Notes: generated by a model from the sequence alone, not told the origin. A DNA stretch of 64,000 nucleotides from Vicinamibacteria bacterium (GCA_965199715.1 OZ241322.1:992001-1056000), one strand, 5' to 3'. Shown: positions 17,536 to 40,488, counted from the stretch's first letter. A program made the numbers and translations.

Positions 17536-17928
17536 TCAATCGCCGGCCGATTCGGTGAGCGCCGCGTATTCGGCGGGTCCGAGCAGCCGCTTCCGCTCCG
17601 CTTCGGGGTCGCTCAGGCGCACCCGGACCATCCAGCCGGCGCCGTAGGGCTCCTCGTTCACCCGTTCGGGGGCGGACTCGAGGTCGGCGTTCGTCTCGAC
17701 CACCGCGCCCGAGACCGGAGAGTAGAGCTCGGAGACGGCCTTGACCGATTCGACGCCGCCGATGACGTCCCCCGCCGCGCACTCGTCCCCCTCGCCCGGA
17801 AGCTCGACGAACACGATGTCCCCCAGCTCCTGCTGGGCGTGGTCGGTGACGCCGACGCAGGCGACGCCGTCGTCCTCGAAGCGCACCCACTCGTGCTCCT
17901 CGCTGTAGAACAGGTCTTCGGGAATCAT
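17536..17928 (-). CDS. gcvH: Glycine cleavage system H protein
   Basis: HEWV, LGDIVFVELP, VESVKAVSE lipoyl-Lys, PYGAGW. Confidence 0.96.
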   Translation of the reverse strand: MIPEDLFYSEEHEWVRFEDDGVACVGVTDHAQQELGDIVFVELPGEGDECAAGDVIGGVESVKAVSELYSPVSGAVVETNADLESAPERVNEEPYGAGWMVRVRLSDPEAERKRLLGPAEYAALTESAGD

Positions 17929-19082
17929 GAGGACTCGGGCGGCTGGGGCCGCGGCTTGCCGGGCGCGCGCTTGCGCTTGCCCGGACGAACGTAGAAGGGA
18001 GTCGGGACGACCTCGGCGGCGACCGGACGCCCGCGGATCACGACCTCGAACGCCTGCCCCGGCTGGTCCCGCCCGGCGGGAAGGTAGGCGAGGCCGATGC
18101 TCTTCTTGAGGAAGGGAGCGTAGCCGCCGCTCGTCACCTCGCCGAAGGGGGCGCCCTCGATCCGGATCGGGTAGCCGTGGCGCGGGATTCCGCGCTCGCG
18201 CATCTCGAAGCCCACGAGCCGCCGGGAGACGCCCTCCTCGCGCTGGCGGACGAGCGCGTCGCGACCGACGAAGTCCCCCTTGTCGGGCTTCACGATCCAG
18301 CCGAGGTCCGCCTCCAGCACCGTCGTCCCGGCGTCGAGGTCCTGTCCATGAAGCGCCATCTTCGCCTCGAGGCGGAGGCTGTCGCGCGCGCCGAGGCCGG
18401 TGGGAATCAACCCGTCATCCTTGCCCGCCTCGAGGAGGCGGCGGGCGACGGCCTCGCCCCGGGCCGCCGGAACGAGGATCTCGAAGCCGTCCTCGCCGGT
18501 GTACCCCATGCGGGCGACGGTGGCCGCCTCGCCGGCCACCTCGCCGTCGGCGAAGCGGTAGTACCGGATGCGGCCGAGATCCAGATCGGTGAGCCGGGCG
18601 AGGATTTCGGGAGCGCGCGGCCCCTGGAGCGCCAGCAGGGCGAACTCGTCGCTGCGGTCGCGCACGAGGCTCCGCGCCGACGAGCCGCCCCGGTCGAGGA
18701 TCCAGTCGAGATCCGTCTGGGTGTTCGCGGCGTTCGCGATGACGAGGAACGACTCCTCGCCCCGGCGGTACACCACGAGGTCGTCAACGAACCCGCCCGC
18801 GTCGTTCGTGAGCGCCGTGTAGTGGGCGCGGCCCGGCCGGAGCCGGCCGACGTGGTTCGGGGTCAGGCCCTCGAGAAGCGCCAGCGCGCCGGGCCCCTCG
18901 ACCTCGATCTGGCCCATGTGGCTCACGTCGAAGAGCCCGCAGGCGGTGCGCACGGCGAGGTGCTCCGCCACCACGCCGGAGAACTGGACCGGCGTCTCCC
19001 AGCCGGCGAAGGGCGCGAGGCGGGCGCCGAGCTCCCGATGGAGCGCGTCGAGCGGGGTCTTGAGGGGAGTCTTCCGGAGCAA
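17925..19082 (-). CDS. gcvT: Glycine cleavage aminomethyltransferase T
   Basis: GLFDVSHMG, ALQGP, GYTGEDGFE, GLGARDSLRLEA. Confidence 0.96.
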   Translation of the reverse strand: MLRKTPLKTPLDALHRELGARLAPFAGWETPVQFSGVVAEHLAVRTACGLFDVSHMGQIEVEGPGALALLEGLTPNHVGRLRPGRAHYTALTNDAGGFVDDLVVYRRGEESFLVIANAANTQTDLDWILDRGGSSARSLVRDRSDEFALLALQGPRAPEILARLTDLDLGRIRYYRFADGEVAGEAATVARMGYTGEDGFEILVPAARGEAVARRLLEAGKDDGLIPTGLGARDSLRLEAKMALHGQDLDAGTTVLEADLGWIVKPDKGDFVGRDALVRQREEGVSRRLVGFEMRERGIPRHGYPIRIEGAPFGEVTSGGYAPFLKKSIGLAYLPAGRDQPGQAFEVVIRGRPVAAEVVPTPFYVRPGKRKRAPGKPRPQPPESS

Positions 19083-19136
19083 CGGCAGGCGACGAGCCGG
19101 CCCCGGGACGAAGCCCCGAGGCCGGGAGAAAGGCGA

Positions 19137-19472
19137 CTATTCCCTGGCCGCGATCGAGGTGACCTTGATCGTGTTGGTCGCCTCGTCGAGCGTGCCCATC
19201 ACCTTGACCTCGGAGGCGGCGTACTCGAGCGCCGTCTCGCCGTCGATGTCGAGCAGGTGGAAGCCGCCGTCCATGACGAGGGTCGCGTTGGCGCCGTTGT
19301 TGAAGCAGCCGGTGGCGCAGCCCTTGTGGTCGGCGGACATGGCCTTGGCGGCGTCCTTGGCGCAGTGCTCGTCGGCGACCCAGCCGGTGAACGTCACGTC
19401 CTCGGCGGCGGCGGCGCCGACGAAGGCGAACGCGATGAGCGCGATGGCGATGAGCGCGAGTGCTTTCTTCAT
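19137..19472 (-). CDS. Small secreted protein with Cys/His motif
   Basis: Sec signal MKKALA...AAAA|E, GGAG RBS, GWVADEHC..H.GCATGC motif, beta-rich C-terminus. Confidence 0.75.
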   Translation of the reverse strand: MKKALALIAIALIAFAFVGAAAAEDVTFTGWVADEHCAKDAAKAMSADHKGCATGCFNNGANATLVMDGGFHLLDIDGETALEYAASEVKVMGTLDEATNTIKVTSIAARE

Positions 19473-19519
19473 GGCATTTCCTCCAGCGGAAAAGGGGAAG
19501 ACGGGGATTCTAAGGCGAG

Positions 19520-22500
19520 TCAGGCGCTGCGATCCATCAGCCGATAGACGGCCGGGATCACGAGCAGCGTCAGGAGCGTGGAGAGGAGCAGTCCGCCGAT
19601 CACGGCGACGGCCATCGGCGAGCGGAGCTCGCTTCCTTCTCCGAGTCCGAGCGCCATGGGAAAGAGGCCCAACACCGTCGTGGCGGTGGTCATCAGGATC
19701 GGGCGGAGCCGGATGCGACCCGCCTGGCGGAGCGCGTCCACCTTGGGCACGCCGCTGCGGCGGAGGCGGTTCGTGGCGTCGAGCAGGAGGATCGCGTTGT
19801 TCACCACGATCCCCGCCAGCATGATGACCCCGATCAGCACCACCACGCTCACGGTGACGTCGAGCAGCCAGAGCGCGAGCACGACCCCGACGAGCGAGAA
19901 CGGGACCGAGAAGAGGATGACGAAGGGGTGGAGCAGCGACTCGAACTGCGAGGCCATCACCAGATAGACCATGAAGATTGCGAGCAGGATCGCGAAGCGC
20001 ATGCTGTCGAAGGAGGTCTCCATCTCCTCCTGCTGGCCGCCGAGGTTCCAGTCGAACCCGGCCGGCAGCGGGATCGTCATCATGGCCGCCTCGATGTCCG
20101 CCCCCACCGACGCCATGTCGCGCCCGACGACGTTCGCGGTGATGGTGGCGACCCGCTCGCCGTCGGCGCGGCGGATCTCGGCCGGGCCGTCCACCTCCTC
20201 GACTTCGGCGACCGCCGAAAGCGGCACCGCCTGCGCCGCGCCCTCGGCGACGTTCAGGTTGCCGAGGTCGGCCACGCTGTCGCGGAAGGACTCGCCGGCC
20301 CGCAGCCGGATGTCGATGGCCCGGTCCTCACGCTGGATCTCGGTGGCCACGTCGCCGAGCACCTTGGAGCGGATGAGATTCCCGAGCTGCCCCACGTTCA
20401 GGCCAAGCGTCGCGATCCGGTCGCGGTCGAACCGGATCTGGAGCTCCGGATTCCCGCCCTCGGTGGAGGACTCGATGTCGGTGAGGCCCGGAATCTCCTC
20501 CAGCAACGCCACCGCGTCCGAAGCGATTCCGTCCAGCAGGGTCAGGTTGAACCCCCGGATCTCCAGCTCCACCGGAGTGCGGAAGCTGAAGTAGGACGGC
20601 CGGCCGAATATGTACTGACGATCCTCCTCGGCGTCGAGCACCGGGCGCAGGGTCTCCATCGCCCGGTCCTCGCGCTCTCTGTCCACAGGTGGATCGAGCA
20701 CGACCAGCAACTGGCCGATGTTCTCACGCAGCTCCCCGGCGATGCCTCCCTGCTGCCCGCTCGCCCCGATCGAGGCATAGACCGTCCGGGCTCCGGGGAG
20801 CGCGGCGGCGGCGGCTTCAAGGCGCTGCATCCGGCGGGAGTTGAGGTCGAGGTGGGAACCCGGAGGGAGTTCGGTGTCCACGAAGAACTCGCCCTGAACG
20901 AGCTCCGGCACGAGCTCGGCCCCGAGCGACGGATAGAGCAGGATCGCCCCGGCGAAGAAAGAGACGGCGACCGCGCTGACCCGGAGCGGGTGGCGCAGTG
21001 CGGAGTCGAGGACCGGCGGATACGCCCGGACGACGGCGTTGTAGCCGATGCGGAAGATGCGGCTCGGAAGCCAGAGCACGGCTTGGACGAGCATCTGCGC
21101 GCCGGTGACGACCGCGCCGAGCACGATCCAGATCCCGCCCGCCACGAGTCCGGCGACCCGGCTGATCCAGCGCCCCAGTCCGGTCCGAACCGGCTCGCGC
21201 TCGGTCTCGGAGCGCCGCTTCAGGTCGCGGGAGGCAAGCATCGGGATCAGGGTCAGCGCCACGAGCAGCGACGTCACGAGCGAGAACGTGACGGTCAGGG
21301 CCTGATCTCCGAAGAGCTGGCCGGCGACGCCCTCGATGAAAACGATCGGCAGGAAGACCGAAACCGTGGTCATCGTGCTCGCGATGACCGCCTGCCCCAC
21401 CTCGGCGGCGCCGGCGCGGGCCGCCGCCACGAGTTCCAGTCCCTCCTGCCGCTTCCGCTTGATGGCCTCCAGCACCACGATGGAGTTGTCCACGAGGAGG
21501 CCGATGCCGAGCGTGATGCCGCCGAGCGACATGATGTTCAGCGAGACGCCGAACAGGTACATCAGGAAGAACGTCCCCACGACGGAGATCGGGATGGACA
21601 CGCCGATGATGAGCGTCGAGCGCAGTTCGCCGAGGAAGAGGATCAGCACGAGGACGGCGAGGACGCCGCCGTACATGGCGGTGGTGAGCACTTCCGAGAC
21701 GGACTGGCGGATGTAGCGCGACTGGTCGGTGATGAGGATCAGCGAGAGCCCGTCGCCGACCTGCGTCATCCGCTCCGTGAGCTCCTCCACCCGGCGGTGC
21801 ACCTCGTCGGCGACAGTGACCGTGTTGGCGCCGCCTTCCTTGTAGATGGCGATCTCGACCGCCTCCTCGCCGTCGATACGGGTGATGACCTCGCGTTCGC
21901 GGGTTCCCCGGCGGATCGTGGCCACGTCCTCAAGGCGGATCGAGGTTCGCTCGGCGTCCACGACGACGTCCCGCATGTCCTCGGGGCGCTCGAACTCGTT
22001 GATCGTGCGCACGAGGTACTCGGTGCCGCCGTCCAGCAGTTGCCCCGCGGCGAGGTTCACGTTCTCCTGCGCGAGCCGGTTCACGACCGCCGAGGTCGAG
22101 AGTCCAAGACCGGCGATCCGACGCTCGTCCAGCTCGACGTGGATCTCTTCCTCAAGCCCGCCGCTGACGAGCGCGGCGGCCACGCCGTCGGCGCGTTCGA
22201 GGCTGCGCTGGATCTCCTGCTCGGCGATCAGCCGCAGCCGCACCAGGTCCTCGTCGCCGGTGAGTCCGTAGCGGAGGATCGGGTCCAGCGACGGGTCGTA
22301 GCGCAGCAGCACCGGACGGGGCGCGTCCAGCGGAAGCTGCACGATGTCGAGGCGCTCCCGCACGTCAAGGGCGGCGATGTCCATGTCCGTGCCCCAGCCG
22401 AACTCGAGGGTGACCTCGCTCCGGTCGGGACGGGAGGACGACACGACCCGCACCACGTTGTTCACCACGCCGACGGCGTTCTCGATCGGCTTGGTGATGA

Positions 22501-22684
22501 GGTTTTCGATCTCACTCGGGGCGGCGCCCTCGTAGTCGGTGCGGACGCTCAGCGACGGATAGGTGATGTCCGGCAGCAGATCCACCGCAAGGCGACCGAA
22601 CCCGACCCAGCCGAACACCACGATGGCGATGAACATCACCAGCACGGTCACCGGCCGGCGGATCGAGAAGTTGACGATGCGCAC
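19520..22684 (-). CDS. RND efflux permease (AcrB/MdtBC-like), subunit 2
   Basis: SIRRPV, GLLVDNSIVVLE, GIVVNNAILL, RLRPILMT. Confidence 0.93.
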   Translation of the reverse strand: MRIVNFSIRRPVTVLVMFIAIVVFGWVGFGRLAVDLLPDITYPSLSVRTDYEGAAPSEIENLITKPIENAVGVVNNVVRVVSSSRPDRSEVTLEFGWGTDMDIAALDVRERLDIVQLPLDAPRPVLLRYDPSLDPILRYGLTGDEDLVRLRLIAEQEIQRSLERADGVAAALVSGGLEEEIHVELDERRIAGLGLSTSAVVNRLAQENVNLAAGQLLDGGTEYLVRTINEFERPEDMRDVVVDAERTSIRLEDVATIRRGTREREVITRIDGEEAVEIAIYKEGGANTVTVADEVHRRVEELTERMTQVGDGLSLILITDQSRYIRQSVSEVLTTAMYGGVLAVLVLILFLGELRSTLIIGVSIPISVVGTFFLMYLFGVSLNIMSLGGITLGIGLLVDNSIVVLEAIKRKRQEGLELVAAARAGAAEVGQAVIASTMTTVSVFLPIVFIEGVAGQLFGDQALTVTFSLVTSLLVALTLIPMLASRDLKRRSETEREPVRTGLGRWISRVAGLVAGGIWIVLGAVVTGAQMLVQAVLWLPSRIFRIGYNAVVRAYPPVLDSALRHPLRVSAVAVSFFAGAILLYPSLGAELVPELVQGEFFVDTELPPGSHLDLNSRRMQRLEAAAAALPGARTVYASIGASGQQGGIAGELRENIGQLLVVLDPPVDREREDRAMETLRPVLDAEEDRQYIFGRPSYFSFRTPVELEIRGFNLTLLDGIASDAVALLEEIPGLTDIESSTEGGNPELQIRFDRDRIATLGLNVGQLGNLIRSKVLGDVATEIQREDRAIDIRLRAGESFRDSVADLGNLNVAEGAAQAVPLSAVAEVEEVDGPAEIRRADGERVATITANVVGRDMASVGADIEAAMMTIPLPAGFDWNLGGQQEEMETSFDSMRFAILLAIFMVYLVMASQFESLLHPFVILFSVPFSLVGVVLALWLLDVTVSVVVLIGVIMLAGIVVNNAILLLDATNRLRRSGVPKVDALRQAGRIRLRPILMTTATTVLGLFPMALGLGEGSELRSPMAVAVIGGLLLSTLLTLLVIPAVYRLMDRSA

Positions 22685-28226: not shown

Positions 28227-28792
28227 GGCGCGGTCACGAGCGCGAGCAGCTTCTTCCGGGCTCGGTGGACGCGGGTCTGGATCGTGCCCGCGGGGACTCC
28301 GGCGGCTTCGGCGATTTCACGGTACGTCATTCCGACCACCACTTTGAGAAGGAGCGGTTCGCTCTCTTCCGCCGCAAGCGAGCGCATCGCCCGGGCGAGG
28401 TCGGCGCGCTCGCGAAGCCGGTCGTCGGGGTCGGGCGAGACGACTCCGAGGCGGCGCGCCAGCCGCTCGCGCCGAGCCGCCCGGCGCAGCGCGTCGTGAG
28501 CGACGCGGACGGCGATGCGGCACAGCCACGCGGCCACCGGCCCCTCGCCCCGGAAGTCGGCGGCCCGTCGGAACGCCCGCAGGAACGTCTCCTGCGCCGC
28601 GTCCTCGGCCGAAGCGGGATCGCTGAGCACCGAGAGCGCGACGGCCCGGACCCTTGCTTCGGTGCGCCGCACGAGCTCGTCGAACGCGGCCTCGTCCCCC
28701 GAGACCCGAAATCGCTCCAGCAGCGCCCGCTCCTCGGCGTTTTCGCGGGCTCGGTCACGGGCGGGCTCCTTCCTGGAAACGGGACGGGTCAT
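28223..28792 (-). CDS. ECF RNA polymerase sigma factor
   Basis: GDEAAFDELV, AEDAAQETFLRA, AWLCRIA, GMTYREIA..GTIQTRVHRAR; start could be 28864. Confidence 0.9.
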   Translation of the reverse strand: MTRPVSRKEPARDRARENAEERALLERFRVSGDEAAFDELVRRTEARVRAVALSVLSDPASAEDAAQETFLRAFRRAADFRGEGPVAAWLCRIAVRVAHDALRRAARRERLARRLGVVSPDPDDRLRERADLARAMRSLAAEESEPLLLKVVVGMTYREIAEAAGVPAGTIQTRVHRARKKLLALVTAP

Positions 28793-28877
28793 CGCGTGGG
28801 TCGCCGGCGCGACTTCCTCAGGAGCAAGACGCGCCGGGCCCTCGGAATTGTTTTCCGGCCGCATAGAGTGCCCCGCC

Positions 28878-29999
28878 ATGAGCGTCCACCGGATCGAGAC
28901 CAGAAGCATCCATGCGGGCCCCCGGGATCCGGGCGGATCGGTCGCGCCGCCGATCCATCTCTCGACGACGTTCGAGCGCGACGAGGCGGGCGAGCTGCGT
29001 TCGGGATACCTCTACAGCCGGACCGCCAACCCGGATCGGGAGGCGCTCGAGACCGTTGTCGCCGATCTTGAGGGAGGCGCGTCGGCGTTCGCCTTCGCCT
29101 CGGGACTGGCCGCGCTGCATTCGCTCTTCCTCGCCCTGAACCCCGGCGATCTGGTGCTCGCGCCGCAGGATGCGTACCACGGCACGACCCACCAGTTGCG
29201 GGGCTCGCTCCGGCGGTGGGGGCTGCGAACGCGGCCCACCGACTTCCTCGATCCGGCCGATCTCGAAGCGGGGCTGGCGGAGCGCCCGGCGCTCATGCTG
29301 CTGGAGACCCCGTCCAACCCGATGCTGCGCGTCACGCCGATCGAGAACACGGCGCGGCGAGCCCGGGAGGCCGGGGCGCTCGTCGCCGTGGACAACACGT
29401 GGATGACTCCGGTGCTCCAACGGCCGCTGGAGCTCGGCGCGGACATCGTCGTCCACGCAACCACCAAGTACTTCGGCGGCCACAGCGACGTCACCGGGGG
29501 CGCGGTCGTGCTGAAGGAGGACGGGGCGCTCGGAGAACGGCTGCGAGACATTCAGACCGGAGACGGAGCGGTGCCCGCGCCGTTCGACTGCTGGCTGCTC
29601 CGCCGCGGGATCCGAACGTTGCCGCTGCGGGTCCGCGCCCAGTCGGAGAACGCCGGCAAGGTAGCCCGGTTTCTGGACGGCCATCCGGTGGTGCTCGCGA
29701 CGTTCTACCCGGGGCTTCCGGATGACCCCGGCCACAAGACCCAGAGGGATCAGGCCGAGGGGTTCGGGGCGATGCTCTCGTTCCGGGTGCGGGGCGGCGA
29801 AGAGCGTGCGCGGCGAACGCTTTCCCGGGTGCGGCTCTTCGTGCGGGCGACGAGCCTCGGCGGGGTGGAGAGCCTGATCGAGCACCGCGCTCCGGTGGAG
29901 GGGCCGCACACGAAGACGCCGCGGGATCTGGTTCGGATGTCGGTGGGACTCGAGAACGCCGAGGATCTGATCGCGGATCTCGCGCAAGCGCTCGAGTGA
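28878..29999 (+). CDS. Cys/Met metabolism PLP enzyme (cystathionine gamma-synthase/lyase family)
   Basis: PPIHLSTTF, YSRTANP, ETPSNP, VDNT, HATTKYFGGHSD, SLGGVESL. Confidence 0.92.
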   Translation: MSVHRIETRSIHAGPRDPGGSVAPPIHLSTTFERDEAGELRSGYLYSRTANPDREALETVVADLEGGASAFAFASGLAALHSLFLALNPGDLVLAPQDAYHGTTHQLRGSLRRWGLRTRPTDFLDPADLEAGLAERPALMLLETPSNPMLRVTPIENTARRAREAGALVAVDNTWMTPVLQRPLELGADIVVHATTKYFGGHSDVTGGAVVLKEDGALGERLRDIQTGDGAVPAPFDCWLLRRGIRTLPLRVRAQSENAGKVARFLDGHPVVLATFYPGLPDDPGHKTQRDQAEGFGAMLSFRVRGGEERARRTLSRVRLFVRATSLGGVESLIEHRAPVEGPHTKTPRDLVRMSVGLENAEDLIADLAQALE

Positions 30000-30269: not shown

Positions 30270-30335
30270 GACCCGGGCGAGGCCGAAGCGGCGGCCGAAA
30301 CTTCAGGCCAGCATGAGTGCATTGCGGGCGATCGG

Positions 30336-30420
30336 TGCCGGGAGCGGGACTCGAACCCGCACGCCCCCGCTGGGGCCGGAGGTTTTAAGCCTCCCGCGTC
30401 TGCCTTTCCGCCATCCCGGC
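30336..30420 (-). tRNA. tRNA-Leu(TAA)
   Basis: GCCGGGA acceptor stem, GGAGG-CT TAA AA-CCTCC anticodon arm, long variable arm, GGTTCGAGTCC; followed by CCG, so CCA is not encoded. Confidence 0.95.
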
Positions 30421-30434
30421 CGCCGCCTCGCTCG

Positions 30435-31610
30435 TTACCAGTCCTGCGAATGCTCGTCGTAAATGTTCGTCGGCAGACGGTACGAATGTTCCCAGTCGCC
30501 CAGATTCGCCACATCAAGCAGCGACTTGAATTGCTTTTGGGCGCGGGAAGCACCCCACTGCGGCACGGCGACTCTCAGGATGCGATCCCCAAACTTCTGC
30601 AGACGTAGTTTCGGCAACTCCAGCTTCAACCGGCCCTTCGGAAATTCGAGCCGCTCCGCGGTCTCGTCGCCGATCAATTCCCGCGCCACCTGATAGAGGA
30701 AGGCGGCGTACTTCCGGCGCACCTTGGGCTCGCCGAAGCCGAGCACGATCGGAGCGCTGTTGATGATGCTGTGCGCCATGATGATGGCGTCATCGTCCGG
30801 GTGCGGCTCGCAGGTCGTCGCCGTCCGAAACGCCCGGAGCGACGACTCGAAGTCGGAGAAGTGGATCCGCTCCGGGATACCCATGACGAGCGCCGTGTAG
30901 CGCCAGACGTGCACGAACCCCTCGATCTCCCGGCGGGTCATGTCGCCGCCGAGGCTCGCGCAGTGCTGCATCAGCCGCCCCGAGAAGGCCACCGACCCGA
31001 GAAGCATGTGCGCGGCGCTCAGCGGCATCCCGTACTCCGACTCGTCCCACTTTCCGGACTGCCGGATCAGGAGCCGCGACTGGGCGTGCACGAGGCGGAT
31101 GCGCAGGCTCAGTTTCCAGCCGTCGCCGCCCGGAAGGATGCCGCCGGGAAGATATTGGTTCACGAGCTGCAGGAGGTTCTGCTTCAGTCGCCGGACGCCG
31201 TTGTCCATGATCCGGCCGCGGATCCGGAAGGACTTGCTGATGAGGGTCGAGAAACCCTCAATGATCGCCCCGGCGACGAGCGCCCCGAGCACCAGCTCCG
31301 AGTTCCGGAGGAACCCTCGGGTCGCGTCCCGCGCCAGTTCGCGATCGAACCAGACCGGAAGCTCCCGGGAAGCCTCGATCAGCTCCCGGAGCGACGGTAG
31401 CGTGTCCGGTGGAAGCGCGTCGTAGTGATCCACGGCGCCGGCGATGGTCTGGTGCACTTCGTGCGGGGACCGCTTTTCGGCGAGTTCCGCCACAACCGCG
31501 TCCGCGAGCGGATCTCCGATCTGCGTGTGCCGGACGTACTCCTCCGCCCACCGCTCATCTACCTTGCGGGCGGCGGCGTAGCCGTCCACGTACTTCGTCG
31601 GAATGTTCAT
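30435..31610 (-). CDS. MpaB/Lcp-like heme-dependent oxygenase (DUF2236 family)
   Basis: GDPLADAVV, RIRLVHAQSR (heme His motif), WD..YGMP, HVWRY...MGI. Confidence 0.82.
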   Translation of the reverse strand: MNIPTKYVDGYAAARKVDERWAEEYVRHTQIGDPLADAVVAELAEKRSPHEVHQTIAGAVDHYDALPPDTLPSLRELIEASRELPVWFDRELARDATRGFLRNSELVLGALVAGAIIEGFSTLISKSFRIRGRIMDNGVRRLKQNLLQLVNQYLPGGILPGGDGWKLSLRIRLVHAQSRLLIRQSGKWDESEYGMPLSAAHMLLGSVAFSGRLMQHCASLGGDMTRREIEGFVHVWRYTALVMGIPERIHFSDFESSLRAFRTATTCEPHPDDDAIIMAHSIINSAPIVLGFGEPKVRRKYAAFLYQVARELIGDETAERLEFPKGRLKLELPKLRLQKFGDRILRVAVPQWGASRAQKQFKSLLDVANLGDWEHSYRLPTNIYDEHSQDW

Positions 31611-32079
31611 GACACTTCTCTGGGCCGCGCCGTCACCGTCGCGGGAACCGTCTCCTTGAGGCCCAAGCCGAAGCTTTTCGTCTCAAGAGAGGTCTCCGGG
31701 GAAAATTCGAATCGCCGGTCCTGAGCGAGCGCGGCGTGCGCAAACACGAACATCCGCTCCACGAATCCGCCCCACGGACAGGTGCGCTGCAAATGACCGA
31801 ACGGAGAGTACGCGTGCACCGGGCAACTCGGATGGGTCGGCTGCAGCCAGCGCTCGGGGCGGAAATCGGCGGCGTCGTCCCCCCAGTAGTCGCTGCGATA
31901 GTGGATCTGGAGCGTGCCCACATTGACGATCGTGTCCTTCGGAATGCGGAATCCGCCCAGTTCGCAGTCCGCGAAGGCAATGCGCGGCAGCAACACGTAC
32001 GGAGGCGCCGCTTCAGGAGGCCGAACTGGCCGCCCCGGGGACCCGGGGGCAGCGGCAGCGACTGGATCGCAGGTCTCAA
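31607..32079 (-). pseudogene. Internally deleted cytochrome P450 copy A
   Basis: GGAGG RBS and TTG start, LPPGPRGGQFGLLKRR joined out of frame to PYVLLPR...FRPERW...PFGHLQRTCPW...TVTARP; stop overlaps the oxygenase ATG. Confidence 0.85.
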
Positions 32080-32101
32080 ACAGGCGCCTCCGTTCATTGT
32101 C

Positions 32102-33475
32102 TCATGCCCGCGGCCGCGCCGTCACCGTCGCGGGAACCATACTCGTGAGGCCCACGCCGAAGCTGCGCATCTCGACCGGCGTGTCCGGGGCGAATTCGAA
32201 TCGCGAGTCCTGCGCGAGTTCCGCAAGCCCGTACACGAACATCCGCTCGGCGAATCCGCGCCACGGACAGATGCGGTGCTCGTAGCCGAAAGGAGTGAAC
32301 GCGTGCGCCGGGCAACCCGGATGGGCCTGCTGCAGCCATCGCTCGGGGCGGAAATCGGCGGCGTCGTCTCCCCAGTAGTCCTTGCGGACGTGCATCGGCA
32401 GCGCACCCACATGCACCACGGTGCCCTTCGGAATGCGGAAGCCGCCCAATTCGCACTCCTCGGTGGTCCGGCGCGGCAGCAACACGTAGGCGGGCGACGT
32501 GATCCGCAGCGTTTCGGCGCACACGGCGCGCAGGTACGGCAACCGGGCGAAGTCCTCCACTTCCACCGGGCGTCCGCCGAGCTGCCGATCCACTTCGGCC
32601 TCGACCTTCGCCCGAGCCTCGGGATGCCTCGCCAGATGGTGTGCGCCGCAGACCAGAGCGGCCACCGGCGCGTCGGAAAACCCCGTGATGAGGACGACCA
32701 GTTCATCGCGGATGTCCTTGTCGGACTTCCACTCCCAGTCCACGACCCCCTCGTCGTGGGCCCGCACCATGAAGGTGGCCACGTCCTCTCCGCTCCACTC
32801 GGGGTCCCGCGCCCGCTCGATGGCGTGGTACACCGGGCGGTCGAGGTTCGCGACGAAGCGCTTGACCCTCCGGTTGTGGGGAAGCGGCAGCTTGGCGAGG
32901 AGCTTGCTGCCCGGCAGGACCGACATCAGGATGTCCTGCCGCAGGCAGATCAGGAAGTTCTTGCCGTCCTCGGAGGCCACCTTCAGCTCGGGACCGAGGA
33001 TGGAGTCGAGCAGCCCCCGCCACATGAACTCTTCCATCTCGTACCGGAGCTGCACCTCCGCGCCCGGTCGGCATCGCTCCTTCAGGGAGCGGGCGCTGCG
33101 GACGATATGCGCGGAGTATTGCTTCAGCTTCTCGTCCGTGACCGCCGCCTCCATCAGGATGCGCCGCTCGGCGTGTTCCTCGCCCCGGCACGCCGGCAGG
33201 CACCCGTCGAGGAGGTGGTACACCGAAGGCGGGTTGGCCCACTCGAACGTGGGCTCGCGCTGGTACACCTCAAGCGATAGATCCGCCTCGAACACGAGGA
33301 GGTTCTTCATCCCGGGGATCTCGAAGTACACGAGGTCGCCGTATTCCTTGTGCAGATCCACGACGAGTCCGGGGAAGTCGGAACTGCGCCGCCACATGAG
33401 ACCGAACTTGCCGCCCCGGGGGCCCGGGGGCAGCGACAGCGACTTGATGTCCACACTCATCTCCTGTGTCTCCAA
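32102..33475 (-). CDS. Cytochrome P450, non-canonical
   Basis: PPGP N-terminal motif, ETLR (ExxR), FRPERW, heme loop PFGYEHRICPW; I-helix GFSDAP; start may be 33460. Confidence 0.92.
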   Translation of the reverse strand: METQEMSVDIKSLSLPPGPRGGKFGLMWRRSSDFPGLVVDLHKEYGDLVYFEIPGMKNLLVFEADLSLEVYQREPTFEWANPPSVYHLLDGCLPACRGEEHAERRILMEAAVTDEKLKQYSAHIVRSARSLKERCRPGAEVQLRYEMEEFMWRGLLDSILGPELKVASEDGKNFLICLRQDILMSVLPGSKLLAKLPLPHNRRVKRFVANLDRPVYHAIERARDPEWSGEDVATFMVRAHDEGVVDWEWKSDKDIRDELVVLITGFSDAPVAALVCGAHHLARHPEARAKVEAEVDRQLGGRPVEVEDFARLPYLRAVCAETLRITSPAYVLLPRRTTEECELGGFRIPKGTVVHVGALPMHVRKDYWGDDAADFRPERWLQQAHPGCPAHAFTPFGYEHRICPWRGFAERMFVYGLAELAQDSRFEFAPDTPVEMRSFGVGLTSMVPATVTARPRA

Positions 33476-33479
33476 TGTC

Positions 33480-33936
33480 TCACCCCGCGGGCCTCGCCGT
33501 AACGGTCGCCGCCAGCATCCCCTTCAGACCGTTCCCGAAGTTGACCTTCTCGATCGAGGCGCCCGGAGCCAACTCCAGACGCGAATCCTGCGCGAGCGAC
33601 GCGAGCCCGTCCACGAACATCCGCTCCGAGAACCCGCCCCACGAACAGCCCCGGGGCTCGAGACCGAACGGCAGGAACGCGTGCACCGGACAACTCGGAT
33701 GCGCCTGCCGCAGCCAGCGCTCCGGGCGGAACTCGGCGGCGTCCGCCCCCCGGTTGTCCCTGCGAGAGTGGGTCGGGGGCGCCGCGATGACGACAATGGC
33801 GCCCTCGGGGATGCGGCAGCCGCCCAGTTCGCAGTCCGCCACGGTCCGCCGCATCGGTCATGCGGCGCTTCAGCAGGCGGAGTCCTCCGAGTTTCGGCCT
33901 CGGCGGCAGGGGCGGCGACTGGATGTCCGTCCGCAT
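33480..33936 (-). pseudogene. Internally deleted cytochrome P450 copy B
   Basis: GGAG RBS and ATG, DIQSPPLPPRPKLGGLRLLKRRMTD joined out of frame to RRTVADCELGG...FRPERW...PFGLEPRGCSW...TVTARP. Confidence 0.85.
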
Positions 33937-33958
33937 GGTCACACTCCGAAAGGCCCGC

Positions 33959-36900
33959 TCACCCACGCGATGCGCGCAACTGGACCGACGTCAAGGCGGG
34001 CACGATGAGCATCAGAACGAAGGTGGCGAAGAGAACCCCGAATCCGATCGACGCCGCATAGGCGACAAGGAACTGGGCTTGGATCGACGGTTCCAGAAGC
34101 AGCGGAACGAAGGCCAGAAACGTCGTGATCGACGTGAGAAGAATGGGGCGGAAGCGGCTCTTCGCGCCCTCGACGATCGCGGTTCGGGGAGCTTCGCCCG
34201 CCTTCAGGCGGCGGTTGACGGCGTCAATCATGACGAGCGAATCGTTCACGACGATCCCGGTGAGCCCGAGCATCGCTGTAATGGAGGTCGTATCAAGGTC
34301 CAAGCCGAGGACGAGGTGGCCAAGAATCGCCCCCACGATCCCGAACGGGATCGCGGCCATCACGATCAGCGGCTTGGTGTATGAGCCGAGCGGGATGGCC
34401 AGCAACGCGTAGATCACGAGCAGCGCCATCATAAATCCCCGGTTGAGCGCCCCGAAAGACTCCGCCTGTTGTTCCTGTTGACCGGCGACTGACCAGCGGA
34501 GATCCGGGTCCCGTTCCAGCACGTCGGCCAGTGCGCCGCCCTCGAGCGCTTCGATGACCGCTGCGCCCGAGACGACGGCGAAATCCACGTCGGCGGAGAC
34601 GGTCACGATCCGCTCGCCGTCGCGCCGCCGGATGGTGGCGGGCCCCTGGTCCACCCCCAGCGAGGCCACGCGCTCCAGCGGCACGACCGCGCCGCCCGGA
34701 GCCTGAACGAGGAAGTTCTCAATATCGGCGATAGCGTCCCTCTCGGCCTCGGGAAGCCGGGCGAGCACCGGCACGTCCTCGCGATCGCGGGGAACCCGGA
34801 GCGCCTCCTCTCCGTACACCATCGACCGCAACTGAGAGGAGAGGTCGCCGAGCGTCAGCCCGAGGGTGCGGGCCTCCGGTTTCAGCGCGAGCTGGACCTC
34901 TTGGTACCCGCCAACGTGATCGGAGCGGATGTCGAAGACGCCCTCCAGCGAGTTCAACCCCGCGACCACCCCGTCCCCGATCGGGGCCAACCGATCCGGG
35001 TCCGGGTGCGAGATGGCGATCTCGACGGGGCGCCCCAACTCCATGAGCTCCGAACTGAAAGTGAGCCCCGTAGCCTGCGGCAGCGGACCCGCTTCCTCTC
35101 GCCATCGCCGCGCCAGCTCGTCAGCGTTCATCTCCCGCTGCTCAACGTTGACCAACTTGATCTCCACGGCGGCGATGTGCGACTGCGGATTCACGCTCGG
35201 TTCCCGCTGGACGCCGCCGCCGGGGGCCCGCGTGGGCACGCCGAGCGTGATCACGGTCCCCACCAGCTCCGACGGACGGCCCTCGTTGAGCGCCCTGAGC
35301 GCACGGCGACCAGCGGCGTCCAGTTCCTCGGCGATCGCCAGCGTGGTCGCCGCCGGGGTCCCCTCGGGCATCTCGAGACGAGCGCTCACGATGTCTCCGG
35401 TCGCTGGCGGCGCGAGCCGGATATTGATGACGCCGGCGGGGATCAAGCCGATGGTCACGATGCTGACGCCGACGGCGGTGGCGAGCGCCACGGTCGGCTG
35501 CCGGGTGACGGCTTCAAGCGCGGCGTTCAGGGGACCGTCGCGGAACCACGCCAGTCTCCGGTCCGCGCCGCGCTGCACCCGCAGGACGGCGCTCTCAAGG
35601 CGGTTCGTGACCGTTCTCCCCGGATCCGGGAGGTGCGAAAGATGGTTCGGCAGCACCAGCAGCGACTCGACCAGCGAAATCAGCAGCATCGCGATCATGA
35701 TCACCGGGACGGCGCTGAGGATGTCGCCGATGCCGGTGGGCATGAAGATCATCGGGAAGAACGCCGCCACCGAGGTCAGAACCGCGAAGATGACGGGGGT
35801 CCGCACCCTGAGCGCGCCCCGGATCGCAGCCGTGGCGCCCGGCAGCCCGCGACGGCGCTCGCGATAAATGCTTTCGGACACGACGATGGCGTCGTCCACG
35901 ACGACGCCGATCGCCAACACGAAAGCGAACAGCGAAATGATGTTGAGGGAGTGCCCGGCGAGGAGCAGCGCCGCGAGCGCCCCGATCCCGGACACCAGGA
36001 TCCCGACCGAGGCCCAGAACGCGAGTCGGATCTCGAGAAACAGCCCGAGCGCGAGCACCACCAACATGAGACCGAGCGCACCGTTCTTCAACAGCAGGTT
36101 GAGCCGCTCCCGGTACGACAGAGCGTCGTTGTTCAGCACACTGATCGAGACGCCCGGCGGCAAGGACGCCCGCACTTCATCCACGTGGGAAAGCACGACT
36201 GCCGCGATCTCAAGGACGCTTTCGTCCGAAGTTCTCCAGACCTCGACGAAGGCGGCGGGCTCCCCGTTGTAGCGGGCCACCATGTCCACGTCCTTGAACC
36301 CGTCGCGCACCTCGGCGATGTCCCCGAGCCGAACCACGGTGCCGTCGCTGCGACTCAGGACCACGACGTCCTCGAATTCCTGCTGCGTCAGGCTGCGGCC
36401 CAGCGTCCGTACCCGGAGGCGGGCGTCGCTCGTGTCCATGGCTCCCGCCGAAGCCTCAAGCGAGCCGGCGCGGACCGCGCCCGCGAGATCGGCGAGCGTC
36501 AGGCCGAGCGCCCGCAGCCGGGCCCGGGGAACCTCGATCGAGATCTCGTCATCCCGGATGCCGGCGACAGTGACGAAGGAGACCTCAGGAAGCGCCGTGA
36601 GCGAATCTTCGACGCGAAGCGCGAGCGTCTTGAGGATGCGCTCGGGGACGTCTCCGTGAAGGACCAGCCGAACCGCGCTCTGGCGGTTGGTCATTTCCCG
36701 AACGCGGGGACGTTCGGAGTCAGCCGGAAGTCCTTCGATGCCGCTGACGGCGGACTCGATGTCGTCGAGCGCCCGCTGCATATCGCCGTCCGCGTCCACT
36801 TCGACAATGACCGAGGCGACGCCTTCGGCCGCAATCGAGCTGACTTCCCAAACCTGATCGACTCCGCTTACGGCCTCCTCGACGCGGGAGACGATGGAGT

Positions 36901-37114
36901 CGTCCACCTCGCTCGGCGTCGCCCCCGGCCACGGAACGCTGACCTCAACGGCGTCGAAGGACAGGCTCGGAAAACCCTCCTCAACCAGCCCCGGGCAGGA
37001 AACGAGGCCCATCAGGAGGAGCGCCGCCATGAGCAGGTTCGCCGCGACGCCGTTCTTCGCCATGTAGGCGATGGCGCCGCGTTCTTCCCGAGGCGGGTGG
37101 TCTTCCGGAGTCAC
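33959..37114 (-). CDS. RND efflux permease
   Basis: NGVAANLLM, GVVVDDAIVVSE, GIVVNDSLV, RFRPILLT. Confidence 0.93.
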   Translation of the reverse strand: MTPEDHPPREERGAIAYMAKNGVAANLLMAALLLMGLVSCPGLVEEGFPSLSFDAVEVSVPWPGATPSEVDDSIVSRVEEAVSGVDQVWEVSSIAAEGVASVIVEVDADGDMQRALDDIESAVSGIEGLPADSERPRVREMTNRQSAVRLVLHGDVPERILKTLALRVEDSLTALPEVSFVTVAGIRDDEISIEVPRARLRALGLTLADLAGAVRAGSLEASAGAMDTSDARLRVRTLGRSLTQQEFEDVVVLSRSDGTVVRLGDIAEVRDGFKDVDMVARYNGEPAAFVEVWRTSDESVLEIAAVVLSHVDEVRASLPPGVSISVLNNDALSYRERLNLLLKNGALGLMLVVLALGLFLEIRLAFWASVGILVSGIGALAALLLAGHSLNIISLFAFVLAIGVVVDDAIVVSESIYRERRRGLPGATAAIRGALRVRTPVIFAVLTSVAAFFPMIFMPTGIGDILSAVPVIMIAMLLISLVESLLVLPNHLSHLPDPGRTVTNRLESAVLRVQRGADRRLAWFRDGPLNAALEAVTRQPTVALATAVGVSIVTIGLIPAGVINIRLAPPATGDIVSARLEMPEGTPAATTLAIAEELDAAGRRALRALNEGRPSELVGTVITLGVPTRAPGGGVQREPSVNPQSHIAAVEIKLVNVEQREMNADELARRWREEAGPLPQATGLTFSSELMELGRPVEIAISHPDPDRLAPIGDGVVAGLNSLEGVFDIRSDHVGGYQEVQLALKPEARTLGLTLGDLSSQLRSMVYGEEALRVPRDREDVPVLARLPEAERDAIADIENFLVQAPGGAVVPLERVASLGVDQGPATIRRRDGERIVTVSADVDFAVVSGAAVIEALEGGALADVLERDPDLRWSVAGQQEQQAESFGALNRGFMMALLVIYALLAIPLGSYTKPLIVMAAIPFGIVGAILGHLVLGLDLDTTSITAMLGLTGIVVNDSLVMIDAVNRRLKAGEAPRTAIVEGAKSRFRPILLTSITTFLAFVPLLLEPSIQAQFLVAYAASIGFGVLFATFVLMLIVPALTSVQLRASRG

Positions 37115-38283
37115 CGGTCTCCCTCACCACCGGACCGCACGGCCATGCCCTCGACGCCCGCCTCGACGCCACCGACCACGAGCATCTGGCCGGCGGTCAG
37201 CTCGCCGGTCACGAGCAGGTCGTCCTCGAGGCGCTCCAGCACCCGCACCGGCACCATCCTGAGCCTTCCGTCGTCCACGACCCATACCTCGTCGCCCGGA
37301 CGGAGCGCGGCTCGCCGGATGCGGAAGTAGGCGTCGGGCGTCACCCCCTCCAACTCCACGTCCACGAATTTCCCGACGAGAAGCGGCGGCCCGTCGTTCG
37401 GGAACGGATTCGGCACGTGCACCACCACATCGATCGTGCGCGTCGCCTCGTCCAGAGTCGTCTCGGCCCGATCCACCCAACCGGTCCACGTATGGCGACT
37501 CCCGCCGTAGTCGGCGACCACCCGGGCGCGGATGCGCCGGTCGGCGGTTCCGGCCCGGAGTCCCCAAAGGCGCGGCAAGAGCGCCGCCGCCTGATCCGAG
37601 AGCGGAACCACGACCTCGACCGAGCCGGCGGCGTGCAGCACGCCGACTCGTTCCCCGGCAGCGACCAGACGCCCGATGTCCACGGACGCCGAGCTCACCA
37701 CCGAGTCGAACGGCGCGACCACCTCGGTGAGGGCGAGATCGAGCTCGGCTTCCGCAAGCGCGGCCCGTTCCCGCTCCACGGCGGCTTCGGCCGCCTTGAT
37801 CTGCGGCTCCCAGAGCGCGAGCGCTCCGGCGTCCGGGGCGTCGCCCCCGGCTCGATTCCGAAAAGACTCGTACTGACCTTCCGCAATGCGGGCTTCTTCC
37901 CGAGTTCGCAGCAGCTCGACTTCGTGGACCGCGACCCCGGCCCGAGCCCGCTCCACCCGGTGGCGGTAGAGGGCGTCGTCAAGGCGGAAGAGGGTCTCCC
38001 CCGCCGCGATGCGGCCGCCGCTGCGGAAAGCCGGACTCACGTAGTCCACGAAACCGCCGACTCCGGGAGCCACGTCAATTCGAGCGCTCGGGCGCACCGT
38101 CCCGGATCCCTGCACCGGGATGGCCCCCTCGCCGATAACCACGGCCTCGGTCATGGCGAACGGGATCGCAGGCGGCGGGTCCCTTCGGGCCGGCTCCGGC
38201 CGCGAGGTCACCATCACGACGGTGACCACGACAGCGCCGGCGACGATCCCCACGGCGATCAGCCAGCTCATCCATCGACTCAT
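37111..38283 (-). CDS. RND periplasmic adaptor (MFP)
   Basis: N-terminal TM, GTVRP, VVAPFD, LDEATRT, LLVGKFV. Confidence 0.9.
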   Translation of the reverse strand: MSRWMSWLIAVGIVAGAVVVTVVMVTSRPEPARRDPPPAIPFAMTEAVVIGEGAIPVQGSGTVRPSARIDVAPGVGGFVDYVSPAFRSGGRIAAGETLFRLDDALYRHRVERARAGVAVHEVELLRTREEARIAEGQYESFRNRAGGDAPDAGALALWEPQIKAAEAAVERERAALAEAELDLALTEVVAPFDSVVSSASVDIGRLVAAGERVGVLHAAGSVEVVVPLSDQAAALLPRLWGLRAGTADRRIRARVVADYGGSRHTWTGWVDRAETTLDEATRTIDVVVHVPNPFPNDGPPLLVGKFVDVELEGVTPDAYFRIRRAALRPGDEVWVVDDGRLRMVPVRVLERLEDDLLVTGELTAGQMLVVGGVEAGVEGMAVRSGGEGDR

Positions 38284-39743
38284 GGGAGGTCCGCTCCTTC
38301 CAGGGCTTCGTCGCCCGTCCACGCTCCGCCGAGCGCCCGGTGCACTCGGAGCCGGGCGAGGTTCAGGTTCCGCTCCGCCCCGGCGAGCGCGGACTCCACG
38401 TCAAGCACCGTACGCGAGGCGTCGAGGTAATCGGCGTAGCCGCCGAGCCCGGAGGCGTAGCGTTCGGCTCGGGTCTCCATCGTGGACTCCGCGTCGCCCC
38501 GGCGGGCCGCGAGGAGCTCGTAGCGGCGGCGTTCGTGGCGGAGCGCCGCAAGCGCCGCCTCCACCTCGTTCACCGCCGTCACGACCGTGCGTCCGAAGCC
38601 GGCCGCGAGCTCGTCGAAGCGCGCCTCGGCGAGCGCCTGCTCGCCCTTGAGCCGGCCGGCGTCGAAGACCGGATGGAGGAGGTTGCCCATGAGGTTGCCG
38701 AACCACTGCTTCACGTCGAAGAGGTCGCCGGCCTCGACGGCCTGGAGGCCGATCGTCCCGGCGAGCGAGAGCCGCGGCAGGAGCGCGGCGCGCCGCGCTT
38801 CGACTTCGTGCCCGGCCGCTTCCAGCCGGCTCCACGCGGCCTGCACGTCGGGGCGCTGGCGCAGCAGGTCGGCGGGAACGCCGGCCGGCACGGGCGCCCC
38901 GGCGGGCGCCGGACGGAGCTCGTCGGGAAGGATCGCCGCGAGGTCCCGCCGGTGGCCGCCGAGCAGGATCGCGAGGCGGCTTTCCGCCGCGGCCAGCCGG
39001 CTCTCGAGTTGCGGGACGCCGGCCTCGGTGGCGCGGGAGTCCTGGCGCACGCGCTGCAGCGAGAGCGAGGCCGCGAGGCCGCGCGCGTAGCGCAGCTCCG
39101 CCAGCTCCTCCCGCTCCCGGAGCACTCCGGAGGTTTCGCGGGCGAGCGCGATCCGGCGGCGCAGGTCCACGACGTCGAAGTAGGCGGCGATGGTCTCCGA
39201 AAGGACCCCGATCCGCGCCGCGCGGAGGTCCGACTCGGAGGCCATGAGCTGCGCTCCGGCCGCCCGGGAGGAATGGGCCAGCCGGCCCCAGAGGTCGATC
39301 TCCCAGGACACGTCCGCGGCGAGCGAGTACGTCGTGAGGCCGAGCCGCTCGGGCAGCGTGAACCCGGCCGCGCCGAGCGTGTCCTCGAGCCCCAGGTCCC
39401 GGAACTGGGCGCCGATCCCGGCGTTCACCGGCGTGTCGAACGTGTCCCCCGCGGCGCGGGCGCGGACGACCGGAAGGATCGCGGCGTCGGCGAGGCGCGC
39501 CCGGACCCGCGCCTGCTGGACCCGGGCGACGGACTCGGCGAGGTCGAAGTTCTGTTCGAGCGCCCGCTCCACGACCGCGTCGAGCGCCGGATCCTCGAAG
39601 ACGCGCCACCACGCCCGCGGCTCGGCGCCTCCGGACCCGGCCTCCTCCGCGTATGTCTGCGGCAGCTCGGGCGGAGCCGGCTCCGGCGCCCGGGCGGCCG
39701 AGCAGCCGGCGAGCGCGACCGGAATCAGCAGCCGCAGGCTCAT
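38280..39743 (-). CDS. NodT/TolC-family outer membrane efflux lipoprotein
   Basis: Lipobox LAGC, WWRVFEDPAL, SWEIDLWG, LLRQRPDV, RALGGAW. Confidence 0.92.
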   Translation of the reverse strand: MSLRLLIPVALAGCSAARAPEPAPPELPQTYAEEAGSGGAEPRAWWRVFEDPALDAVVERALEQNFDLAESVARVQQARVRARLADAAILPVVRARAAGDTFDTPVNAGIGAQFRDLGLEDTLGAAGFTLPERLGLTTYSLAADVSWEIDLWGRLAHSSRAAGAQLMASESDLRAARIGVLSETIAAYFDVVDLRRRIALARETSGVLREREELAELRYARGLAASLSLQRVRQDSRATEAGVPQLESRLAAAESRLAILLGGHRRDLAAILPDELRPAPAGAPVPAGVPADLLRQRPDVQAAWSRLEAAGHEVEARRAALLPRLSLAGTIGLQAVEAGDLFDVKQWFGNLMGNLLHPVFDAGRLKGEQALAEARFDELAAGFGRTVVTAVNEVEAALAALRHERRRYELLAARRGDAESTMETRAERYASGLGGYADYLDASRTVLDVESALAGAERNLNLARLRVHRALGGAWTGDEALEGADLP

Positions 39744-40270
39744 GCGGGGAGACGTCGCTCGGCCAACCCGTCGAGCGCGAGACCGAACCAAGCGGTGAAC
39801 GACTCCGGCGCCTCGGCCATGCGGGCGCGGACCGCCGCGAGCCCCTCCCACTTCCAGTCCATCGCCTCGGCGGGATTCGGGGACGCGGATCCGTCGAACC
39901 GACCGAGAAGGACATGGTCGTATTCGTGCTCGATCATTCCGTGGTCGAGCTCGGCCCGGTAGCGGAAGGCGAACGCCGGCTCCAGCGGGCAATCGAACCC
40001 CATCTCGTGGCGCAGCCGGCGGTGGGCGGCGTCCAGCAGCGCCTCTCCGGCCAGCGGATGGCTGCAGCACGCGTTCGTCCACAGCCCGCCCGAGTGGTAC
40101 TTGCCGAGCGCGCGGCGCTGCAGCAGCGTCCGCCCGGATGCGTCGAACACGAAGATGGAGAAGGCCCGATGAAGGATCCCCTCGCGGTGGGCGGCCATCT
40201 TCTCCACGACTCCGACGGGGCGATCCTCAGCGTCCACGGCGACCAACATGTCCCCCGACTCGCTTCGCAT
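39740..40270 (-). CDS. idi: Isopentenyl-diphosphate delta-isomerase, type 1
   Basis: LHRAFSIFVF, LLQRRA..KYH..GLWTNACCSHP, EHEYDHV. Confidence 0.95.
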   Translation of the reverse strand: MRSESGDMLVAVDAEDRPVGVVEKMAAHREGILHRAFSIFVFDASGRTLLQRRALGKYHSGGLWTNACCSHPLAGEALLDAAHRRLRHEMGFDCPLEPAFAFRYRAELDHGMIEHEYDHVLLGRFDGSASPNPAEAMDWKWEGLAAVRARMAEAPESFTAWFGLALDGLAERRLPA

Positions 40271-40290
40271 GGCGCCGCCTGCCCGCCCGC

Positions 40291-40299
40291 ACTCTATCA
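40291..40299 (-). promoter_or_regulatory. Putative extended -10 (TGaTAGAGT) upstream of idi
   Basis: Motif lies ~20 nt upstream of the idi ATG, just downstream of tRNA-Cys. Confidence 0.35.
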
Positions 40300-40327
40300 G
40301 CCCGCACGCAGCCGGAATCAGCTCGGG

Positions 40328-40400
40328 AGGCGGCGGGCGGATTCGAACCGCCGAATAGAGGTTTTGCAGACCTCCGCCTTGGCCACTTGGCTACGCCGCC
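40328..40400 (-). tRNA. tRNA-Cys(GCA)
   Basis: GGCGGCG acceptor, GAGGT-CT GCA AA-ACCTC, GGTTCGAATCC, U discriminator. Confidence 0.95.
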
Positions 40401-40413
40401 ACGGCCCGGCGCC

Positions 40414-40488
<75 letters not shown>

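Follow-up and report, generated by a model that had tools for sequence, protein, structure and literature searches.

Probable remnants of two separate internal deletions beside an intact cytochrome P450 gene in a sponge-associated bacterium

Why does an intact cytochrome P450 (P450) gene lie between two partial copies of itself that lack nearly the same central segment? The question is raised by the DNA analyzed here, a stretch of 64,000 nucleotides (nt) from Vicinamibacteria bacterium (GCA_965199715.1 OZ241322.1:992001-1056000), referred to below as the window. The source is a sponge-associated bacterium whose genome of 2.66 Mb was obtained from sponge metagenomes. The partial copies are designated mini-copy A (downstream of the intact P450) and mini-copy B (upstream). 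Three explanations were offered in the preliminary description of this locus: parallel decay of a three-P450 array at a deletion hotspot, silent cassettes that could diversify the intact gene by gene conversion, and separately translated C-terminal fragments. We consider it probable that the mini-copies are pseudogene remnants of a lineage-specific P450 triplication, left by two separate, late, illegitimate deletions. If they are ordinary remnants, the locus is a clean and well-dated case of genes dying within a tandem array of enzyme genes in a sponge symbiont, together with a small puzzle, the near-identical ends of two separate deletions in the absence of a detectable hotspot.

The intact gene encodes a full-length member of its family. 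Its product matches PF00067 with an E value of 1.5e-46 and 159.6 bits against a cutoff of 22.8, and residues 27-440 cover positions 14-448 of the 462 in the profile. The segments ETLR, FRPERW, and F..R.C, which we take to be the ExxR, PERF/W-type, and heme-ligand Cys loop motifs of P450s, align with those of 25 homologues, and Cys403 is nearly invariant. The ATG at 33460 is the likely start, giving a protein of 452 amino acids (aa) that matches the length of database entry P0001.

All elements first described for the mini-copies were found in place, and open reading frames (ORFs), blastn, repeat offsets, and the sequence itself confirmed them in every detail. The start codons occupy homologous positions in the three copies (ATG 33460 in the intact gene, ATG 33936 in B, and TTG 32079 in A), each four codons before an I-K/Q-S motif and with a GGAG-type site 7-9 nt upstream. 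A and B each keep this ribosome-binding site, the start, and 25 codons through the LPPGP hinge to KRR, after which the frame changes; in the B stub, PPGP has become PPRP. The stub of A is identical to the intact gene at 55 of 63 positions by blastn (E 1e-18) and that of B at 27 of 33 (E 6e-4), or at 44 of 63 without gaps in a repeat search, and the two stubs are 70% identical to each other in the 63-nt repeat family D2. The C-terminal parts match the intact gene by blastn at 310 of 388 positions with zero gaps for A (E 5e-100) and at 281 of 381 for B (E 3e-64). The 129-aa ORF of A matches PF00067 with an E value of 3.4e-15 (profile positions 340-447). The 124-aa ORF of B, which opens with an ATG exactly at the junction, matches with an E value of 1.4e-09 and shares 63% aa identity with the intact copy. 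Both ORFs are listed in a public protein collection with a P450 domain, and gene callers and Pfam in this way label what would be wreckage as small P450s.

The ungapped repeat offsets give a net loss relative to the intact copy of 892 nt (3n+1) for A and 902 nt (3n+2) for B, in agreement with the differing frame offsets described previously. The missing segment, placed at ~32498-33385 in that description, corresponds to about 32500-33385 of the intact copy. It extends from codon ~31 to just past ExxR and thus takes in the I- and K-helices; in all, about 65% of the fold is gone. ExxR is missing from A and B, and all three copies retain FRPERW, the heme Cys, and the ATVTARP end. Neither mini-copy can encode a complete P450 fold, as only PF00067 positions 340-448 are represented and stub and tail lie in different frames. 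Each combines clear homology to a functional gene with a frameshift and the deletion of the core, as expected of a pseudogene.

The two junctions differ in kind. The junction of A is clean, ~6 nt of it fit both sides, and it is without unusual structure (fold z 0.42). In B, about 10 nt whose origin is uncertain separate the stub from the C-terminal part. The RNA of this junction (33835..33885, minus strand) folds with -26.4 kcal/mol (z -3.28, 0 of 200 shuffles as stable), and the sequence is a near-perfect palindrome with an 8-bp stem, a 5-nt loop, and an outer stem. The palindrome could be the footprint of template switching at the deletion or a chance pairing of Arg-codon hexamers.

The mini-copies are real features of the genome. 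The contrary reading, that they are collapsed or chimeric joins of full-length genes, is almost certainly wrong. In seven public runs from two studies, 98% or more of the words sampled from 31400-34200 are present, and the contigs of four of these runs (X1, X2, X4, and X6) were compared with the locus. The interval 30400-34400 lies within single contigs of X1 (24.4 kb) and X4 (10.5 kb); the X1 contig is identical to the window there, and that of X4 departs from it at one position, 32694 (A>G), within the core of the intact gene. In X2 the interval is covered by three overlapping contigs, and in X6, an RNA library, two contigs cover the locus. X1 and X2 come from one study and X4 from the other, possibly from the source sample of this DNA. 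Such contigs reveal presence and architecture; rare variants drop out of them, and transcription is not shown by them. The architecture is the same in the contigs of all four runs, and no joints or indels appear within the P450 region. The only observation found on the side of an artefact is that the X2 contigs break at 31850-31879 and 32340-32369, at ~30 nt over FRPERW that are identical between A and the intact copy and can therefore fragment short-read assemblies of the locus. The copies, at 72-80% identity, are too different to collapse, and the identical architecture in separately assembled contigs from three DNA runs of two studies excludes an assembly artefact for practical purposes.

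Relatives of the intact gene were sought at several distances. In a search of 5.8 billion proteins, the identity of full-length homologues did not exceed 49%. Three same-genus genomes were searched: the best match in G002 is 31% identical, and G001 and G003 gave no match to the intact P450 at E <= 1e-10. Orthologues of the adjacent RND pump are present in G001 and G002 (51-53% identical), and the 17.5-kb stretches around them hold no match to the intact P450 at E <= 1e-5. A wider scan, with one genome per species, covered 73 loci, in which tblastn gave 107 P450 matches. Two to five tandem P450 paralogues occur in 21 of the 25 closest loci. All 107 matches begin at or before query residue 103 and extend to residue 417 or beyond, so the deletion architecture sought in other genomes was absent from them, with partial copies in 0 of the 107. 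When 60 relatives were searched with the intact P450, none had a match limited to the last third; the genome of the window has two, A and B. Short stand-alone relatives were also looked for in the 5.8 billion proteins, and of 12 candidates of 70-226 aa only the two ORFs of the window scored. In the literature searched, neither a bacterial P450 array with paired internal deletions nor a C-terminal P450 fragment with a function was reported.

A tree of the C-terminal thirds was constructed from 66 rows, for which loci L030-L059 were used and L060-L102 were left out. The three copies of the window are monophyletic with support of 100/100 on a stem of 0.52, which points to a lineage-specific triplication distinct from the conserved trio in locus L031 of a relative, where three intact P450s are followed by a 391-aa homologue of the MpaB/Lcp-like oxygenase. 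The tree favors no branching order inside the trio. The tip lengths at the amino acid level are 0.10 for the intact copy, 0.27 for A, and 0.43 for B. Unique third-position changes number 15 in the intact copy, 14 in A, and 27 in B. At the 63 codons with the same amino acid in all three copies, unique synonymous codons number 7, 3, and 16, respectively. These site patterns pair A with the intact copy and so speak against descent of A and B from one mini-copy; the outgroup-polarized characters divide 2/2/2 among the three possible pairings.

The pairwise dN/dS values among the copies are 0.39-0.52. A majority-rule count over 93 of 122 codons (the 29 at which all copies differ were skipped) gave pN/pS of 0.27 for the intact copy, 1.17 for A, and 0.22 for B. 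A codon likelihood model was fitted on the three-branch tree, whose branches mix the time before and after the deletions. The omega of the intact branch is 0.205 (95% profile interval about 0.085-0.72). That of the A branch is 0.476 (0.18 to >2.5), and omega = 1 is not rejected for it (twice the log-likelihood difference, 2dlnL, 1.1). The longer tip branches of A and B and an omega of 0.48 for A that is compatible with 1 are in keeping with remnants. The preliminary description had named neutral evolution of the fragments and intact P450s in relatives as the joint signs of simple pseudogenization. The intact arrays were found; over whole branches, the fragments appear not to be neutral.

The course of events that we favor would begin with the tandem triplication of one P450 gene within a row of efflux-pump, P450, and MpaB-like oxygenase genes. 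We infer that during most of their divergence the three copies were full length and under selection, and that the outer copies each lost the core later by a separate illegitimate deletion. In A, the 892 nt would have been lost with a clean join at the ~6-nt overlap; in B, the net loss of 902 nt would have been accompanied by remodeling of the junction. Because the deletions shift the frame, ribosomes at the retained starts would make P450-unrelated polypeptides of 154-159 aa, and the C-terminal thirds would be non-functional remnants. These would still look like genes because the deletions would be young relative to the 20-26% nucleotide divergence of the copies. The decay proposed for a three-P450 array is thus supported by the monophyletic trio, the intact arrays in relatives, the frameshifts, and the extent of the fold that was lost, and the deletion hotspot proposed with it is not.

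Several observations weigh against this course of events. The omega of the B branch is 0.167 (95% profile interval 0.085-0.32) and omega = 1 is rejected for it (2dlnL 25.9), and a single omega for the three branches is not rejected (p 0.21). Judged against 56 outgroup sequences, departures in the 31 columns with a consensus of at least 80% number 6 in the intact copy, 7 in A, and 6 in B, and in the 19 columns with a consensus of at least 90% they number 2, 3, and 3. Neither C-terminal part contains a gap or a stop relative to the intact copy. Coding DNA still under selection would have the same omega, conserved columns, and open frames, and the deletions must be late if the mini-copies are remnants. 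Most of the divergence, and that of B especially, appears to have accumulated under purifying selection on a P450-like protein, so that either the deletions would be young or the fragments would still be selected. The ends of the deletions present a further difficulty. On the N-terminal side they lie within 0-10 nt of each other, and on the C-terminal side they are ~25 nt (about 8 codons) apart; with the ~10 extra nt of B counted as filler, the two stubs stop at the same KRR codons. By a rough estimate, agreement of this kind would arise by chance with a probability of ~1e-3 for random internal deletions.

A simple test gave no support for a hotspot. The duplex energies of 50-nt windows at the endpoints in the intact gene are -17.5, -14.5, and -15.9 kcal/mol, at the 40th-71st percentile of 20,706 control window pairs (mean -16.9 kcal/mol, standard deviation 4.0). 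The longest direct word shared between endpoint windows is 6 nt versus a control mean of 5.8. With this test negative, the coincident endpoints stay unexplained. A further point on the contrary side comes from a genome-wide self-blastn (237 local high-scoring segment pairs), from which a giant internal-repeat gene at C1:160-186 kb was excluded. The split-collinear signature, defined as an internal deletion of at least 300 nt between local paralogues, occurs only at this locus despite the many tandem paralogues in the genome. The other candidate proved to be a plain 4-copy array on contig 2.

Matching endpoints would need no hotspot if a deletion had been copied between paralogues. In such a history, which we regard as unlikely, a single primary deletion would have been transferred to the second full-length paralogue by ectopic gene conversion across the heterology or by unequal exchange, and both mini-copies would still be pseudogenes; the B junction would have been remodeled subsequently, with about 24 nt lost and about 10 nt of filler gained. 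The common end of the stubs at KRR, on the same assumption of filler, and the unclean, palindromic junction of B are in keeping with it. So is the distribution of sites at which A and B agree and differ from the intact copy, 8 of which fall in 41 nt beside the junction versus about 3.4 expected (35 in 429 nt); the Poisson estimate for this clustering is about 0.02, for a window picked after the data had been seen. Beside the junction, however, A and B show no particular similarity, agreeing at 15 of 18 positions on the N-terminal side and 23 of 30 on the C-terminal side. A is nearer to the intact copy (87% in the stub and 80% in the C-terminal part) than to B, the polarized characters favor no pairing, and an old shared mini ancestor conflicts with the omega of 0.17 for B unless the mini-copies were functional. 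Selection on the retained thirds, as translated proteins of 124-129 aa or as silent donor cassettes for the C-terminal third of the intact P450, has in our judgment only a small chance of being correct. It is just as doubtful that the thirds, under purifying selection since the deletions, would let the intact P450 vary its substrate-contact, heme-loop, and C-terminal segments, as donor cassettes or as alternative 3' ends accessible to recombination, or would be small proteins, with the shared architecture being what must be kept. The low omega of B, with neutrality rejected, argues for such selection, as do the uninterrupted frames, the lack of excess loss at conserved residues, the near-identical architecture of A and B without a detectable hotspot, and the ATG of the B ORF at the junction. 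The RNA-library contigs over the whole locus are a weak hint in the same direction, with carry-over of DNA possible. The omega of A, in contrast, is compatible with 1, and no GGAG, GAGG, or AGGA lies within 14 nt upstream of either ORF. The separate translation proposed for the fragments is not supported by Shine-Dalgarno (SD) motifs; the rejected neutrality of B leaves it with a small probability. The C-terminal third of a P450 is not known to form a domain by itself, and the heme pocket is largely missing from the fragments, as are the I-helix and ExxR; no such short proteins were found elsewhere and partial matches were absent from the relatives. For silent conversion cassettes, no evidence was found. 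The C-terminal third of the intact gene is identical in the contigs of the four runs, without recombinant joints or a variant letter, and the single variant letter in 4 kb is the one at 32694 in the core; contigs drop rare variants. Identity between the copies is evenly spread, and the longest identical tract is ~29 nt, over FRPERW. If selection did keep the remnants, the locus would be the first case of a bacterial enzyme diversified in a cassette-like manner, which is judged unlikely.

It is more improbable still that the stubs serve the operon, with the retained SD motif and start coupling translation to the next gene and the remnants acting as spacer or leader ORFs. The homologous positions of the SD motif and start in all three copies would fit such a role. 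The frames that the starts open end close to the following genes: the TGA of the 159-aa frame of B overlaps the ATG (33460) of the intact P450 as ATGA, and the 154-aa frame of A ends 23 nt ahead of the ATG of the MpaB-like gene. The row is also free of promoter-like and terminator-like sites save for one weak terminator-like site in the pump gene. Chance, however, keeps alternative frames open in DNA of 66-69% GC, and even within the intact gene they are open for 142-194 codons. By estimate, the ATGA overlap would arise by chance in ~10% of cases, and coupling needs a few tens of bases, which leaves the 380 retained nt and the omega below 1 unaccounted for. Two ways of restoring a P450 frame were considered and rejected. 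Inspection found no homopolymeric or X XXY YYZ motif for a programmed frameshift at either junction, and the copies would need opposite shifts; the hairpin at the B junction has no equivalent at A. For stop read-through, the C-terminal frame of A is open from the TGA of the intact gene (164 codons), which has no parallel in B and is judged to be chance.

Separate, late deletions in a triplicated gene thus remain the probable origin of the mini-copies, and with respect to known systems the locus is most likely one more case of a familiar type of event, odd in a single respect, its near-coincident endpoints. Bacterial pseudogenes can arise by deletion between short repeats, through illegitimate or slipped-strand events, during genome reduction. 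The clean junction of A with its ~6-nt overlap resembles such deletions, and this genome, at 2.66 Mb, is smaller than that of any relative listed (2.9-4.9 Mb in 26 of the 27 family members and 2.8-10.2 Mb in the rest of the order). The junction of B, in contrast, is not a simple repeat-mediated join, and the intact copy gives no hotspot signal. In silent-cassette systems of the pilE/pilS, vlsE, and msp2 type, gene conversion draws on silent partial copies. The likeness lies in one full-length gene flanked by partial paralogues that differ mainly in variable segments. Here, however, the target is an enzyme rather than a surface antigen, only two cassettes are present, and these keep their own start signals; the locus, without mosaicism, joints, or conversion tracts, is not filed under these systems. 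The locus also resembles tandem P450 arrays under birth-and-death evolution, a concept described for bee P450s (PMC8670302), in that local duplication and divergence are followed by a loss that leaves fragments beside intact genes. The two lost copies here share nearly the same internal deletion with start and tail kept, in place of random truncations or point disruptions, and the setting is a small bacterial genome from sponge metagenomes.

According to PMC11706023, fusions of GPP34 and P450 domains are exclusive to sponge symbionts, and they share with the present locus the sponge setting and the conspicuous expansion or rearrangement of P450s. Such fusions occur close to members of the present subfamily in L031 and next to the orthologous RND gene in G001. 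They differ in belonging to another P450 lineage, as the L031 fusion is not matched by the P450 of the window at E <= 1e-3, and in being fusions rather than internal deletions. The fusion ORF in L031 (L031:2047-4155, minus strand) is 702 aa long, with a GPP34 domain and, after it, a P450 domain recognized by Pfam. In G001, a 675-aa ORF (L110 8183-10210, plus strand) is convergent to the RND orthologue; its N-terminus is GPP34-like by eye only, and it gave weak tblastn matches to the P450 C-terminal parts.

The features of the locus are collected in Table 1. The genes are arranged on the minus strand in the order HlyD-type adaptor, RND pump, mini-copy B, intact P450, mini-copy A, and MpaB/Lcp-like oxygenase, followed by tRNA-Leu; the stop of the C-terminal frame of A overlaps the ATG of the oxygenase gene. 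Across the row from pump to oxygenase, the consensus scan detected neither promoter-like sites nor intergenic terminator-like sites, which is a weak pointer to an operon-like, co-transcribed row.

Table 1. Coordinates of the P450 copies and of the surrounding genes in the window
Feature	Coordinates	Strand	Details
HlyD-type membrane-fusion (adaptor) protein	37111..38322	-	First gene of the row examined; PF13437 HlyD_3, E 2e-09
RND efflux transporter (AcrB family)	33959..37114	-	Immediately upstream of mini-copy B; PF00873, E 6.1e-138
Mini-copy B, N-terminal stub	33862..33936	-	GGAG, 7 nt, ATG 33936, 25 codons to KRR
Mini-copy B, C-terminal P450 third	33480..33854	-	Open 124-aa frame, post-ExxR to end; not in frame with stub
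Frame opened by the start of B	33457..33936	-	159 aa; P450-unrelated after codon 25; no Pfam match
Intact cytochrome P450	32102..33475	-	457 aa from TTG 33475; 452 aa from ATG 33460
Mini-copy A, N-terminal stub	32005..32097	-	GGAGG, 7 nt, TTG 32079 (in-frame ATG 32097), 25 codons to KRR
Mini-copy A, C-terminal P450 third	31607..32010	-	129-aa ORF 31607-31996; homology begins ~32010
Frame opened by the start of A	31633..32097	-	154 aa; out of frame after codon 31; no Pfam match
MpaB/Lcp-like oxygenase	30435..31610	-	Final gene of the row; PF09995, E 7.6e-16
tRNA-Leu(TAA)	30334..30420	-	Right after the row
tRNA-Cys and tRNA-Gly	40326-40488		Other border of the row

The G+C content of the row is mostly 0.655-0.71 (to about 38 kb) versus 0.70-0.76 in the flanks of the interval 30334-40488, and the P450 subfamily is found in metagenome-assembled genomes labeled as at least five phyla. 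The pump/P450/oxygenase row between the tRNAs could be an acquired island.

This small genome (G000) is rich in tandem gene duplications. Arrays of ~2-kb units with 73-91% identity are present at C2:150622-159804, C1:597187-601663, C1:185407-189296, and C1:2120160-2131587. The region C1:160578-185231 matches itself over ~25 kb at ~71% in very many registers and has the appearance of a giant gene built from short tandem repeats. A 7.8-kb inverted repeat of 98% identity extends from the contig end (C2:1-7847 and 14796-22642), with a second pair of 85% within it; it may reflect a genuine inverted duplication or else a fold-back at the contig end. Outside the row, the ORF at 28515-29999 (plus strand) carries a Cys/Met-metabolism PLP enzyme domain that begins only at residue 128, so the listed ORF is probably over-extended and an internal Met is probably the true start.

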